Under the pieces are notes generated by a model, which was not told the DNA's origin, ran no database searches, and saw only the letters and a list, made by a program, of their open reading frames with translations. DNA of 64,000 nucleotides from an uncultured Gemmatimonadales bacterium (GTDB lineage Bacteria; Gemmatimonadota; Gemmatimonadetes; Gemmatimonadales; GWC2-71-9). This document shows positions 46,040-50,277 of the stretch, in pieces. The position numbers and the translations under genes were made by a program. Location: positions 364,881-428,880 of the forward strand of contig CAWDYU010000003.1 of the NCBI GenBank assembly GCA_963806875.1. The letters run 5' to 3'. Numbering within the stretch: the first letter of the stretch is position 1; each line of letters begins with the position of its first letter.

Positions 46040-47080
46040 ATGCGCGTACTGGCTCTCGAGACTTCATGTGACGAAACCTCCGCCGCCGTGGTGCGCCGCG
46101 ACGGCGACGTGGTGACGCTTGAATCGCTCACGATCCTCTCGCAGGACGTTCACCGGATCTTTGGTGGTGTCGTTCCCGAACTCGCATCGCGCGCGCACCT
46201 CACCACGGTGGGACCTGTCGTTGATGCTGCGCTTGCCGACGCCGGCCTCGAACCGGCGGGCCTCGACGGAATCGCCGTGACTCGCGGCCCGGGACTCCTC
46301 GGCGCGCTGCTGGTCGGGGTGACCTGGGCAAAAACGGTGGCATGGCGAGACGACATCCCGCTGATCGGTGTGCATCACCTCGAGGGTCACCTCTTCGCGC
46401 CGACACTCGAAGATGCGACTGTCGCTCCGCCCTTCACGGCGCTCTTGGTAAGCGGTGGGCACACCATGCTGCTCGACGTTCCGGCGTGGGGCGACTATCG
46501 CCTGCTCGGCCAGACCCGCGACGACGCGGCGGGCGAGGCGTTCGACAAGGTCGGCTCGCTGCTCGGCCTCGACTATCCCGCCGGCGCCGCGATCGAACGC
46601 CTGGCCATGGAGGGCGACCCGCGTCGGTTCACGTTCCCGAGGCCGCTCCTTCGGGGGGTGAGCGCGAGCGAGGCGTACGAGTTTTCGTTCAGCGGACTCA
46701 AGACCGCGGTGTTGCGCGCCGTGCAGCTAAGCGATGACATCGAGCGTGATCGCGCCGACCTCGCACGGGGCTTCCAGGACGCCGTGATCGAGGTCCTCGT
46801 CAGCAAGACGCTGCATGCGGCGCGGGAGCACGACAGGTCGCTGGTGGTGCTGGGCGGCGGCGTTGCGAGCAGCAGGGCACTCGCTGAAGCGATGCGCGCC
46901 AAGGCGGATAGCCGGATACGTGTCGCGGTGGCGTCGCCGCGGCTCAACACCGACAACGCCGCCATGATCGGTGCGGCGGGCAGTTGGCGCCTCGCCCGGG
47001 GAGAACGGCATGGCGCCGAGCTCGATGCCCGTGATTCCCTTCCCCTTCCCGGGCTCGTCCCGGCAGGAGCAGCAGCATGA
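46040..47080 (+). CDS. tsaD: tRNA threonylcarbamoyltransferase
   Basis: LETSCDET, GGVVPELASRAH, HHLEGH, VSGGHT, DDAAGEAFDK, TDNAAMI. Confidence 0.97.
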   Translation: MRVLALETSCDETSAAVVRRDGDVVTLESLTILSQDVHRIFGGVVPELASRAHLTTVGPVVDAALADAGLEPAGLDGIAVTRGPGLLGALLVGVTWAKTVAWRDDIPLIGVHHLEGHLFAPTLEDATVAPPFTALLVSGGHTMLLDVPAWGDYRLLGQTRDDAAGEAFDKVGSLLGLDYPAGAAIERLAMEGDPRRFTFPRPLLRGVSASEAYEFSFSGLKTAVLRAVQLSDDIERDRADLARGFQDAVIEVLVSKTLHAAREHDRSLVVLGGGVASSRALAEAMRAKADSRIRVAVASPRLNTDNAAMIGAAGSWRLARGERHGAELDARDSLPLPGLVPAGAAA

Positions 47081-47928
47081 TCGTCGCTCACCCGCTGAAC
47101 CTGGACGTGTTCGGCTTCGAGGTCACCGGATACGGGATCATGATGATGGTCGCGTTCCTGGTCGGCGCCTGGATTGCCGATCGCGAGCTCAAGCGCCTCG
47201 GCTTCGCGTCCGATTACGCCGGCGACATGCTCTGGGCCGCAGTGATCGGTGGGGTGGTGGGCGCAAAACTCTGGTATGTGGCGCTCCACGGCACCGATGC
47301 ACTACTCACCCGCGGCGGGCTCGTGTGGTACGGCGGATTCGTCGGTGGCACGCTCGCCGTGATCCTCAACGGCTGGCGGCGGGGCGTACCGGTGCGCTGG
47401 ACCGGGCAGATCATTGCGCCGGTGCTGGCGGCTGCGTACGCCATCGGTCGCGTGGGGTGCTATCTGGTGGGCGACGACTACGGCAAGCCGAGCAGCAGCG
47501 CATTCGCCGTGGCGTTTCCCGAGGGTATTCCGCCAACCACTGCGGGCGTCATGCGGGCCGAGTTTCCCGGACTCGACATCCCCGCGTCGCTCCCGCCTGA
47601 AGCGGTGATGGCGGTGCATCCCACCCAGCTCTACGAGGTGGCGATGATGTTGTTCGCGTTTGCACTGCTCTGGCGCTGGCGTACCTCGCCGCGCGGCACC
47701 GGCTGGCTGCTCGGCGCGTACCTGGTGATGGCGGGGATCGAGCGATTCATCGTTGAGTTCTTCCGGGCCAAGGACGACCGGCTGCTGGGCGCCTTGACGA
47801 TCGCCCAGGCCTTTTCGGTTGTTCTCGTACTCCTCGGAGCCGTGCTGATCGTGCAGTGGTCGAAGGGGGGGAAGGTCGCGCCGGGAGAGTGGCTGGAGCG
47901 TGGTGCCAGCGGGGGTCGGGCCGGGTGA
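47077..47928 (+). CDS. lgt: prolipoprotein diacylglyceryl transferase
   Basis: YG, GAKL, GGLVWYGG, IGRVGC...GDDYG, HPTQLYE, RFIVEFFR. Confidence 0.93.
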   Translation: MIVAHPLNLDVFGFEVTGYGIMMMVAFLVGAWIADRELKRLGFASDYAGDMLWAAVIGGVVGAKLWYVALHGTDALLTRGGLVWYGGFVGGTLAVILNGWRRGVPVRWTGQIIAPVLAAAYAIGRVGCYLVGDDYGKPSSSAFAVAFPEGIPPTTAGVMRAEFPGLDIPASLPPEAVMAVHPTQLYEVAMMLFAFALLWRWRTSPRGTGWLLGAYLVMAGIERFIVEFFRAKDDRLLGALTIAQAFSVVLVLLGAVLIVQWSKGGKVAPGEWLERGASGGRAG

Positions 47929-47931
47929 CTC

Positions 47932-47960
47932 TTGACAGCTTCAGAACGAAAACGTAGGAT
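47932..47960 (+). promoter_or_regulatory. sigma70 promoter
   Basis: TTGACA (47932-47937), 17-nt spacer, TAGGAT (47955-47960). Confidence 0.8.
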
Positions 47961-47966
47961 TATCCC

Positions 47967-48118
47967 TAGGTGGCGCGAGGCAGTCGAAGCGCCCATCGAG
48001 AAAGTCCCAGGACGAAGAAGGGTGAAGCGAACACACCTGTTCGTCTTCGTTTACTCAGGGGGCGTTCTGGGACCTCCCAAACAACACGGCCCGCCAGTGA
48101 TGGCGGGCCGTTGTTGCG
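47967..48118 (+). ncRNA. candidate structured small RNA of about 150 nt, family not recognised
   Basis: Lies between a near-consensus promoter and a terminator, has no credible ORF, and forms three stem-loops. Confidence 0.65.
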
Positions 48119-48120
48119 TT
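48080..48120. terminator. probable bidirectional intrinsic terminator
   Basis: ACGGCCCGCCA-gtga-TGGCGGGCCGT 11-bp stem; TGTTGCGTT follows on plus and GTTGTTT on minus. Confidence 0.8.
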
Positions 48121-48146
48121 CGGACGATAGCGTGAACGGGAAGGCT

Positions 48147-50249
48147 TCATCCGTTGAGCGCAGCGCCTGCCATACGGTTGCGAAGGATCTCCACTTCGGC
48201 CTTGAGCGCCGCCAGGTCGGCCTCCATCTGCTCCAGAGAGCGCAGCACCGCACCCTCGAGGGGCAGCGCGGCTGCTGGAACTGGATCCGCCACGACCGCC
48301 GGGGGCACCGCAGACGCGGCAACCACGGCTTCCGCAAATGCCCGCTCGTCGCGGCGGCGCTGGAACACCAGGATCCACAACAGCGCTCCGGAAGCGAGCA
48401 CCAGCAGCAGCCCCTGGGCGAGCATCGACTCCAGCGTGGGGTAGATGCCCAGCACCGGGAGCCGGGGCCAGTCCTGCAGCACGGTGGTGCCAACGACGCC
48501 ACCCGCCTGCAACTCCGCCACTGCCTTGCCGGCAAACACGAACGCGGTGTAGTAGAGGAAGCCGCTGGTGACGGCGAAGAACGGCTTGAGCGGGAGCCGG
48601 ATTCCGTAGCGATTCATTGCGGTATACACTCCCGCAAGGATCACTCCGCCCACCGCCATCCCGGCGACCACCGGCCAGAACGTCCCACCCGCCGATCCGC
48701 CTGACACGAAGAGCGCCTTGTAGAAGAGCACCGTCTCGAATCCCTCACGGTACACCGCAAGGAACGCAGCCGACGCCAGGGCGAGTGCCGAGCCGCCCGT
48801 CACGGCCACCTGCACGCGTTCGCGCACGAACGCGGTCCACTTGGCGACTTCCATCTTGGACAGCAGCCAGTACGAGACGTAGAACAGCACGCCGACGGCC
48901 GCCACCATGGTGAAGCCTTCCATCGCCTCGCGGTGCGCCGGGGAAATCTGGAACACCGTCTCGAGCAGCACTGCCGTCAGCACCGAGAGCGCCACGGCCG
49001 CGCCAACCCCGATGTGAATGTCGCGTCGGCGTTCGGGAGCGCCCGTCTTCACGAGGAAGGTCATGAGCGCCCCGATGATGAGGATCGCCTCGAGGCCTTC
49101 ACGGAGCAGGATGACCAGTGATTGCAGGAAGAGATTGATCGGCGACAGCTTGTCGGCAACAACGCGTTCCGCCTGTTCGAGATCGGCCGCAAGGTCGGCC
49201 TGCACCGCTGCCAGCTCGCCGGCCGTGCCGCCGGACGTTCGGGCGCGCAGCGAGGCGAATGTCGCCTCGAGTCGGGCCGCCAGCTCGGGCTTCTTCGCAC
49301 GCACCGTACGCTCGACACGCTCGAAGGCGAGGTATGCGTCGAACGCCGCCGCCGTGGCCTCTTCCCGCTGCCCGGTTGCGGCGAGGTCGCTGGCCTGCCT
49401 GAGCCGCGCCCGAACGGCACCGAACGCTGCCGCGATTTCATCCCCGGATTCACCCGCGTCCTGGAATCCGCGCACAGCGCCGAGGCCCGCGCGGTCTGCA
49501 CCAGGCCCCAGGGCGGCCAGTACCTGGCTGTCGCTCAGCTCCGCGACGACCGGGAACGCGCGGAGCGATACCGGCACCACCCCGCCCGACCGCTCCTGAC
49601 GGAGGGTCGAGGCATAGGCAGCCACCGCCCACCGATCCTCGGCGCTGAGCCGCGACTCGTACGCCGGCATCGCCGTGCCGGCAACGCCGATCGTGATCCG
49701 CTGATAGAATGCGAGGGGAGTGACGTCGGTGAGCGCGGCATGATCTGCCAGGTTTGCCGGCACCGGCATCAGGGCTCGGCCCGCCGGACCATCGCCTCGC
49801 CCGCGTGAGCCATGACATGTCGCACACTCCCGGGCGAAGACCTCCGCACCGCGGGCCAGCGACGGAGTCGTCACGGGAACATCCACCAGCGTGATGCGGA
49901 GCACGCTCGCGAGTTCGCTGGTGACAGCCCGCACGTAAATGTCGACGGAATCCGGGGGAGCGGTACGCCGAACCGCCGACAGCGCCCGCTCAAGCCCGGT
50001 CACAGCGGTCGATGAAACGGAGTTGGGGAGCGTTCGGGCGGTGCGGACGGCCTCGCGCAGGAAGAGTTCAGCCTCCTCCACTTCCGCCGGCATCACCACC
50101 CGATTGTCCACTACGCCAATCCGGTACTCCTGCGCGGCCAGCTGGGCCGATGCCGCGACCCGCCGCGCAGCCGCGACGGAATCGGCGCCCGAGGAGGCGG
50201 TAGGAGGGGACAATGTTGTGAGAAAAACCAGCGCACCGATGAGAATCAT
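48147..50249 (-). CDS. cytochrome c / FTR1-family iron permease fusion (PbrT-like)
   Basis: Signal peptide, CATCH heme motif, GTAMPAY, REGLE and REGFE motifs, TM domain. Confidence 0.93.
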   Translation of the reverse strand: MILIGALVFLTTLSPPTASSGADSVAAARRVAASAQLAAQEYRIGVVDNRVVMPAEVEEAELFLREAVRTARTLPNSVSSTAVTGLERALSAVRRTAPPDSVDIYVRAVTSELASVLRITLVDVPVTTPSLARGAEVFARECATCHGSRGRGDGPAGRALMPVPANLADHAALTDVTPLAFYQRITIGVAGTAMPAYESRLSAEDRWAVAAYASTLRQERSGGVVPVSLRAFPVVAELSDSQVLAALGPGADRAGLGAVRGFQDAGESGDEIAAAFGAVRARLRQASDLAATGQREEATAAAFDAYLAFERVERTVRAKKPELAARLEATFASLRARTSGGTAGELAAVQADLAADLEQAERVVADKLSPINLFLQSLVILLREGLEAILIIGALMTFLVKTGAPERRRDIHIGVGAAVALSVLTAVLLETVFQISPAHREAMEGFTMVAAVGVLFYVSYWLLSKMEVAKWTAFVRERVQVAVTGGSALALASAAFLAVYREGFETVLFYKALFVSGGSAGGTFWPVVAGMAVGGVILAGVYTAMNRYGIRLPLKPFFAVTSGFLYYTAFVFAGKAVAELQAGGVVGTTVLQDWPRLPVLGIYPTLESMLAQGLLLVLASGALLWILVFQRRRDERAFAEAVVAASAVPPAVVADPVPAAALPLEGAVLRSLEQMEADLAALKAEVEILRNRMAGAALNG

Positions 50250-50254
50250 TCCCA
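50240..50254. promoter_or_regulatory. putative Fur box overlapping the iron permease start codon
   Basis: TGAGAAT-C-ATTCCCA, a 7-1-7 inverted repeat with one mismatch. Confidence 0.6.
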
Positions 50255-50277
50255 AACGCTTTGGTTATGGACGGAAT

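Follow-up and report, generated by a model that had tools for sequence, protein, structure and literature searches.

A probable undescribed family of structured small RNA genes in Gemmatimonadaceae, with sigma-54 and sigma-70 promoter forms

What is encoded between lgt and the convergent iron permease gene in the window, the whole 64-kb stretch of Gemmatimonadales DNA analysed here? An earlier note on this DNA had read the gap as an unrecognised, independently transcribed structured small RNA with its own consensus promoter and terminator. It had further proposed two mutually exclusive folds, a C-rich anti-Shine-Dalgarno tract, a trans-acting or switch-like function and, from adjacency and one half-site only, a link to iron. 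We examined the locus, its relatives in other genomes and the known RNA classes to which it might belong.

Locus, promoter and predicted transcript

In the window, the order of genes is tsaD, lgt, the RNA and then a convergent gene for a fusion of cytochrome c and FTR1 iron permease. The upstream flank, lgt (prolipoprotein diacylglyceryl transferase; Pfam PF01790, E 7e-50), occupies 47077..47928 on the plus strand. The downstream flank lies at 48147..50255 on the minus strand and encodes 702 aa (PF03239, PF13442, PF00034). In this protein the cytochrome c domain covers residues 133-217 and FTR1 covers residues 377-583, and across the family the fusion is kept as a 640-730-aa protein. Only 3 nt past the lgt stop codon TGA (47926-28), a plus-strand sigma-70-type promoter begins (47932..47960). 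It consists of a -35 box TTGACA at 47932-37, a 17-nt spacer and a -10 box TAGGAT at 47955-60, matches 10 of 12 consensus positions and is the promoter that the earlier note had described. Two promoter-like sites were found in 3 kb, compared to 0.2 expected.

Placing the 5' end by the -10 box and the 3' end by the terminator, we infer a plus-strand transcript of about 150 nt (47968..48118). The 150-nt transcript folds at -70.7 kcal/mol, compared to -52 +/- 4.3 for shuffled sequences (z -4.39), and 0 of 200 shuffles fold as well. It opens with a 5' hairpin (47972..47993; GGCGC 47972-76 with GCGCC 47989-93) and an A-rich linker, GAGAAA. The conserved core module follows at 47998..48083. Its outer stem, P1, is 11 bp long and joins GUCCCAGGACG (48004..48014) to CGUUCUGGGAC (48063..48073). 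Inside P1 is an internal loop with AAGAA on the 5' side (48015..48019) and AGGGGG on the 3' side (48057..48062). The segment that this loop encloses (48020..48056) holds P2 (GGGU 48020-23 with ACUC 48053-56), P3 and the apical hairpin (48024-33 with 48038-48, the apical CGAACA-cacc-TGTTCG being 48028-43) and a 3' bulge, GUUU (48049-52). After P1 come a single-stranded C/U tract, CCUCCC (48073..48078), and a terminator hairpin with an 11-bp stem, a GUGA loop and a weak U tail (48086..48111), all on the plus strand. The 5' hairpin, the 11-bp stem, the apical hairpin and the GTGA-loop terminator thus all lie where they had first been placed.

A terminator scan flagged the 48086-48111 hairpin on the minus strand only, as the U-run in the tail of the plus strand, TGTTGCGTT, is weak. 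The terminator probably acts in both directions and is common to the RNA and the convergent FTR1 gene.

Many promoter regions of same-genus copies (L005-L009, L013, L019, L029) contain two or three CCTAG(G) motifs spaced 11-12 nt apart. These motifs cover the spacer, the -10 box and the transcription start (CCCTAGGAnnCCCTAGGTTTTTCCCTAGT), and a weaker form of the array is found at 47955-47970 of the window. CTAG is otherwise rare, and the array may be an operator for a repressor.

The RNA does not belong to any family in Rfam 15. When the whole 64-kb window was searched with cmscan, there were 0 matches at the gathering score. Relaxing the limit to E 10 over 47850-48200 gave five sub-threshold matches; the highest-scoring one reached 18.8 bits where its threshold is 75, three are confined to the terminator hairpin and none nears its own threshold. 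The listings and abstract openings returned by full-text literature searches contained no described small RNA of Gemmatimonadota, and between this literature and Rfam 15 we found no description of a regulatory RNA for these abundant soil bacteria. The RNA therefore remains unrecognised, as it had been called.

Distribution and covariation of the core

We searched 61 genomes, including the window's own, by BLAST with 47925-48125. Matches were found in 32 of 36 other genomes of the same genus, one of them the unpublished genome G023, and in 0 of 24 genomes from two other families of the order. Several species of the genus have tandem copies, two to three per genome.

To extend this search, we used R1, a covariance model of the 86-nt core. 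Within the 64-kb window, R1 has a sole match, at 47998-48083 (96.5 bits, E 1.1e-25). In a search of 151 genomes of the phylum with stricter filters, 27 genomes matched, among them the window's own and the unpublished genome G107. All matches fall within one family, where 26 of 71 relatives in seven genera carry the RNA, and eleven other families gave 0 of 79. Scores in this search ranged from 74 to 103 bits, with nothing weaker reported. An exact core pattern, CGAAGAAGRGTG-N20-32-ACTCAGGGGGCG, was also scanned over 185,579 species genomes and occurred in at least 120 stretches of public genomes; the 80 titles listed are all Gemmatimonadota, Gemmatimonadales or Gemmatimonadaceae metagenome-assembled genomes. 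In total, about 170 copies were examined, from genomes of seven genera of one family. A looser pattern gave a single match in viral contigs, which we reject as chance since it scores 16.6 bits and has no P1.

The predicted stems are conserved and covary strongly. RNAalifold, applied to 34 BLAST-derived copies, predicts the stems originally proposed, and 17 of 34 pairs have compensatory changes. In an alignment of 137 distinct cores, pairing holds in 99.3% of cells, and both partners have changed in 14 of 24 pairs. None of 500 column shuffles reached any measure of this alignment, and partners slid out of register pair at 30-47%. P1 carries compensatory changes at 8 of 11 pairs, with 99.7% of cells pairing, and can be exchanged entirely: the window's genus has GUCCCAGGACG/CGUUCUGGGAC where other genera have GUGGUAGGUCG/CGAUCUACCAC. 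In P3, 6 of 9 pairs are compensatory, and P2 is invariant except for G-U to A-U. At two positions of the 137-sequence alignment G-U pairs predominate, which identifies the plus strand as the folding strand. The 3' bulge varies in length by 1-4 nt among copies, and therefore there is no conserved reading frame.

The elements on either side of the core are kept as structures. The 5' hairpin varies in sequence and persists as a hairpin: 88% of 135 copies reach -6 kcal/mol or lower in the 30 nt before P1, and same-genus alignments contain visible compensatory variants. Strong hairpins lie downstream of the core in 96% of 135 copies, and the terminator stem of the BLAST-derived alignment is kept with compensatory changes.

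Both sides of the internal loop, AAGAA and AGGGGG, are invariant in the 34 BLAST-derived copies. Invariance of these letters in the pattern-derived alignment (A2) is partly circular, as the search pattern fixed them, and independent support comes from the BLAST-derived alignment (A1) and the model-derived matches. All 25 model-derived matches scoring at least 77 bits keep AAGAAG and CAGGGGG, and 5 of these lie outside the search pattern. In one model-derived match, the C-G pair adjoining the loop has been swapped to A-U with the loop letters kept.

The second fold fared differently. An alternative pairing between GACGAAGA and TCTTCGTT exists in the window sequence, and the earlier note had taken it to create mutually exclusive folds and a switch. 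In the alignment of 137 sequences, 69.4% of cells are paired for the corresponding helix (GACGAAGA with UCUUCGUU), 100 of the sequences break the A-U pair at columns 18/51, and 33 of 500 shuffles perform equally well. Moreover, variation from GAAG/CUUC to GGAG/CUCC favours the main fold over this helix. These data indicate that the alternative helix is not conserved.

Neighbourhood, promoter types and modules

Flanking sequence was available for 80 loci, and the following neighbour counts rest on crude ORF calls. The nearest upstream ORF belongs to the TsaD/Lgt cluster in 68 loci; an ORF of the minus-strand RraA-like/FTR1 cluster is nearest downstream in 55 and second-nearest in a further 20. 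The common order is tsaD, lgt, the RNA and then convergent RraA-like and FTR1 genes. In four of five related genomes that lack the RNA, lgt and FTR1 are likewise convergent neighbours, and the intergenic gap that holds the RNA is therefore inherited. The ATTATC half-site, which overlaps the -10 box, occurs only in the four closest copies of the alignment. With the pair found also in RNA-less relatives and the half-site so restricted, the suggested link to iron is unsupported.

The RraA-like gene (150-170 aa; PF03737, E 6e-41) lies between the RNA and FTR1 in sigma-54-type genera, convergent with the RNA. Examples are L034:1943-2422, L033:1884-2339 and about 18 other loci, and the window has no such gene in this place. 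RraA proteins are RNase E regulators or aldolases.

The copies divide by promoter type. Outside the genus type, 81 of 94 first or single modules have a strict sigma-54 site, TGGCA[CT]-N5-[TC]TGC, located 46-66 nt ahead of P1 in all but one, where the distance is 32 nt. One of the 94 has a sigma-70-type match and 12 have no strict match of either type, although those of the 12 that were inspected are near-matches. Genus-type copies have TTGACA-N16-18-TAnnnT in 36 of 42 cases and a sigma-54 site in 0 of 42. Loss of sigma-54 is ruled out as the cause of this switch, because rpoN is present in the genus: of 121 genomes of the family, one of them unpublished (G221), 120 gave a match to PF04552, the window's own included.

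Further elements lie upstream of the sigma-54 promoters. In loci L031-L110, which are relatives only, we inspected about 20-220 nt upstream of the -24 element; these sequences are related, so the counts overstate independence. Of 60 loci, 39 contain the IHF-core-like motif CAA-N4-TTR (shuffle mean 4.7) and 12 contain inverted TAAGT...ACTTA pairs (shuffle mean 0.4); GTC-N9-11-GAC palindromes cluster near -160 and -100. Taken as a set, these elements resemble the activator and IHF sites of an enhancer-dependent promoter. When five genomes were scanned with ACTTA-N12-26-TGGCAY-N5-YTGC for other genes under the presumed activator, only the RNA's own promoter was found in one, one other site in a second and none in the remaining three, which defines no regulon.

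In some genera, single transcripts contain two core modules about 112 nt apart, with a small hairpin between them (L037, L051, L053, L055, L059, L062, L079, L107 and L137 among others). The second module has no promoter in 9 of 9 cases.

Tandem second gene copies in the window's genus (L007, L008, L009, L064, L030) have TTGCGN-N17-TAnnnT promoters of their own and a distinct apical hairpin, and they read AGAGUG in place of GGGUG in P2. They are sibling sRNAs, not recent duplicates.

Could the module instead bind a small molecule or an ion, as aptamers do? Such a ligand-sensing, riboswitch-like RNA would act in trans, or through terminator read-through that runs antisense to the convergent RraA-like/FTR1 genes. 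An invariant loop between covarying stems, together with tandem modules, resembles the layout of aptamer domains, and convergence toward RraA-like/FTR1 is kept in most loci by the counts above. However, that orientation is inherited background, no alternative pairing between module and terminator is conserved, the terminator looks constitutive and very stable, and no Rfam aptamer class matches. A cis-acting riboswitch fits poorly as well: with its downstream neighbour running convergently, the RNA does not form a 5' leader, and the competing helix proposed for it is not conserved. Taken together, we regard ligand sensing as improbable.

RNA libraries contain cores of relatives, in contigs from four libraries of four studies at depth 2-9, which is weak evidence. 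Seven public RNA-library runs contain 12-15% of sampled words. One contig links the 3' end of lgt with the core, reaching 160 nt ahead of it, and DNA carry-over or read-through is a possible source of such contigs. As relatives' sequences with no end information, they speak neither for nor against expression in the window's organism.

This contig, the several tandem copies in some genomes and a 67-codon ORF (47932-48135) that overlaps the region could suggest that there is no functional RNA here at all and that the locus is instead a REP- or MITE-like DNA repeat, a short coding gene or an lgt 3' UTR with a shared terminator. We consider this very improbable. The ORF begins at the -35 box and matches no Pfam family, and bulge indels break any reading frame. 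This reading is also at odds with strand-specific pairing in which G-U pairs dominate, with a single fixed position between lgt and convergent FTR1-type genes in most of 80 loci, with absence from viral contigs and with two promoter types conserved at a fixed distance. The coordinates, the folding z-score and the covarying stems instead uphold an independent gene for a structured small RNA, complete with promoter and terminator. We conclude with high confidence that this is a real RNA gene and a member of a previously undescribed, lineage-restricted family. New here are the split between sigma-54 and sigma-70 promoters, the two-module and tandem forms, and the invariant loop amid covarying stems.

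The C/U tract, possible partners and modes of action

In most copies of the window's genus, the tract after P1 reads CCUCCC, and together with the end of P1 it gives ACCUCC, which is like the 16S anti-Shine-Dalgarno sequence. The 16S 3' end of the window's genome is canonical, GGAUCACCUCCUUUCU. Family-wide, a pyrimidine fills each of the first five positions downstream of P1 in about 85-96% of 137 copies. The register is not fixed, and the tract is missing from a few copies, as in L047 (AGACC) and after the second module of L053 (GUUGAA). Thus the CCTCCC that the earlier note singled out at 48073-78 is kept in the genus, but in the family as a whole the tract is only pyrimidine-rich. The GGGGG loop strand can pair with the C/U tail in 90.4% of cells, compared to 93.1% when the partner is slid one column, which shows only that the tail is pyrimidine-rich.

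In the window's genome, 48 of 1237 crude start codons are preceded by GGAGG, compared to 13 at a control position. These crude counts suggest that strong Shine-Dalgarno sites are uncommon there. In the same count over the whole genome (G000), the use of Shine-Dalgarno sites looks low: GGAG is found in the 20 nt ahead of 149 of 1237 ATG starts, called crudely, compared to 68 at the control position.

Target prediction with the tract as seed had been put forward as a check, and it did not single out targets. An 11-mer scan of the window's genome for the tail complement, allowing one mismatch, returned 13 sites, one of which is the RNA gene itself, and this number is about chance. A 12-mer scan for the complement of the loop strand plus P2, also allowing one mismatch, returned 7 sites including the RNA gene, compared to about 12 by rough estimate. 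A candidate target in an intergenic hairpin on contig C1 was discarded, as it lies on the wrong strand for the adjacent gene.

Our best reading, which we give a little less than an even chance, is a trans-acting riboregulator whose loop module docks a shared partner while the C/U tract pairs with purine-rich mRNA sites. The RNA is built from a variable 5' hairpin, a rigid core (P1, the purine-rich loop, P2 and P3), a pyrimidine tract and an intrinsic terminator. The invariant loop and P2 would form a docking surface for a partner common to all carriers, most likely a protein. The exposed tract would then pair with purine-rich, Shine-Dalgarno-like stretches of target mRNAs, presumably acting without Hfq or ProQ, as do C-rich sRNAs of bacteria that lack Hfq or do not depend on it. 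Transcription would start from a sigma-70-type promoter in the window's genus and from a sigma-54 promoter under an enhancer-binding activator in most other genera; being under such an activator, the RNA would be a signal-induced regulator there. Of the two functions first offered, trans action is thus retained as the likeliest, and the switch falls with its unconserved fold. Counting against seed pairing is that an anti-Shine-Dalgarno-like seed is unspecific. So do the variable sequence of the tract across the family, its absence after some modules, the apparent scarcity of strong Shine-Dalgarno sites and the chance-level numbers from the complement scans.

The strongest competing reading is a decoy RNA, with ligand sensing next. 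As a pure decoy or sponge, the purine-rich loop module would titrate an RNA-binding regulator, like CrcZ, RsmZ or GlmY, with the dose set by module and gene-copy number and the C/U tract incidental. Several observations agree with this: both loop strands and P2 are invariant while the flanking helices covary freely, second modules come without a promoter, and species of the window's genus have two to three tandem gene copies. There is also precedent in CrcZ and GlmY, which are sigma-54-driven decoy RNAs (cf. PMC7073468, PMC6296734). However, one or two modules are few for a sponge, and the tail is pyrimidine-rich in most copies, suggesting that it matters.

No candidate protein for a decoy to titrate was found. 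Among five carrier genomes, four of which are at least 95% complete, none encodes Hfq (PF17209; control genomes were positive), ProQ or Ro/TROVE (PF05731), and two encode CsrA. GGA-in-loop motifs are absent as well; the sole GGA of the window copy forms part of stem P1, and other genera do not keep it. We think a pure decoy rather unlikely. The same results set the RNA apart from Hfq-dependent enterobacterial-type sRNAs, from CsrB/RsmZ-type sponges and, together with the lack of an Rfam match, from Y RNA/YrlA.

By analogy, the riboregulator we favour may work like sigma-54-driven sRNAs (GlmY/GlmZ, Qrr, CrcZ) and Hfq-independent C-rich-seed sRNAs, yet it lacks features that define each of these families. 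It shares with the sigma-54-dependent GlmY/GlmZ (GlrR), Qrr1-5 (LuxO) and CrcZ/CrcY (CbrB) a stand-alone gene with an intrinsic terminator, a canonical -24/-12 promoter in most genera, IHF-core-like sites and GTC-N9-11-GAC palindromes upstream of that promoter, and sibling copies in some species. Hosts encode sigma-54, the window genome included. The likeness to glmY and glmZ extends to the exchange of a sigma-54 for a sigma-70 promoter in one lineage. Among Enterobacteriaceae, the sigma-54 promoter of glmY and glmZ has likewise been replaced by sigma-70.

Unlike GlmY/GlmZ, Qrr and CrcZ, the new RNA has no sequence or structure match in Rfam, and the five carriers tested lack Hfq, as noted. 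The family qualifies as sigma-54-dependent through other genera; the window copy does not, as it is driven by sigma-70 and has no TGGCAC-N5-TTGC at the fixed distance. The glmM-glmS spacers of five genomes, compared by eye, share no complement to the RNA, and it thus lacks the conserved glmS-leader complementarity of GlmY/GlmZ. GlmZ-like control of glmS is rejected on this basis.

With the C-rich-seed sRNAs (RoxS/RsaE, RNAIII, actinobacterial 6C and AbcR1/2, CUCCCA), the new RNA has in common a short exposed C/U-rich tract that could block a Shine-Dalgarno sequence, here repeated after each module in two-module forms. The absence of Hfq and ProQ from the tested hosts is a further likeness to those that are Hfq-independent. 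In the C-rich-seed families, the C-rich motifs lie in hairpin loops and are the most conserved part. In the new RNA, by contrast, the tract is a linker between stem and terminator, conserved in composition only and less so than the purine-rich loop, and there is no Rfam match to 6C, RsaE/RoxS or AbcR. It is therefore not placed among them, though it may resemble them in mode of action.

A repeated module with invariant unpaired purines, in copy numbers that vary by lineage, also recalls CsrB/RsmZ, CrcZ and 6S. The new RNA differs from CsrB/RsmZ in having only one or two modules and no GGA-loop motifs, with CsrA patchy among carriers, and from 6S in lacking a closed rod with a central bubble.

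A wider interpretation is conceivable, though we hold it as doubtful. The core module could be a new RNA recognition domain that docks or titrates a global RNA-binding regulator or binds a small ligand. The RNA would then be the output of a sigma-54 signalling pathway, an independent counterpart of CbrB-CrcZ or GlrR-GlmY with dosage tuned by module and gene duplication, and one genus would have been rewired to sigma-70. The invariant purine-rich internal loop must be recognised by something, and the identity of its partner could reveal post-transcriptional control in carriers in which Hfq and ProQ were not detected. The family provides an entry point, with a covariance model, about 170 copies and clear structural support, and its change from sigma-54 to sigma-70 is a natural experiment in promoter rewiring.

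The gap after lgt is also occupied by repeats in one relative that lacks the RNA. At L181 (genome G079), GAGAGGT/AAGAGGT heptamer repeats follow the lgt stop, and complementary CCTCT-rich repeats lie across a terminator hairpin from the heptamer run.
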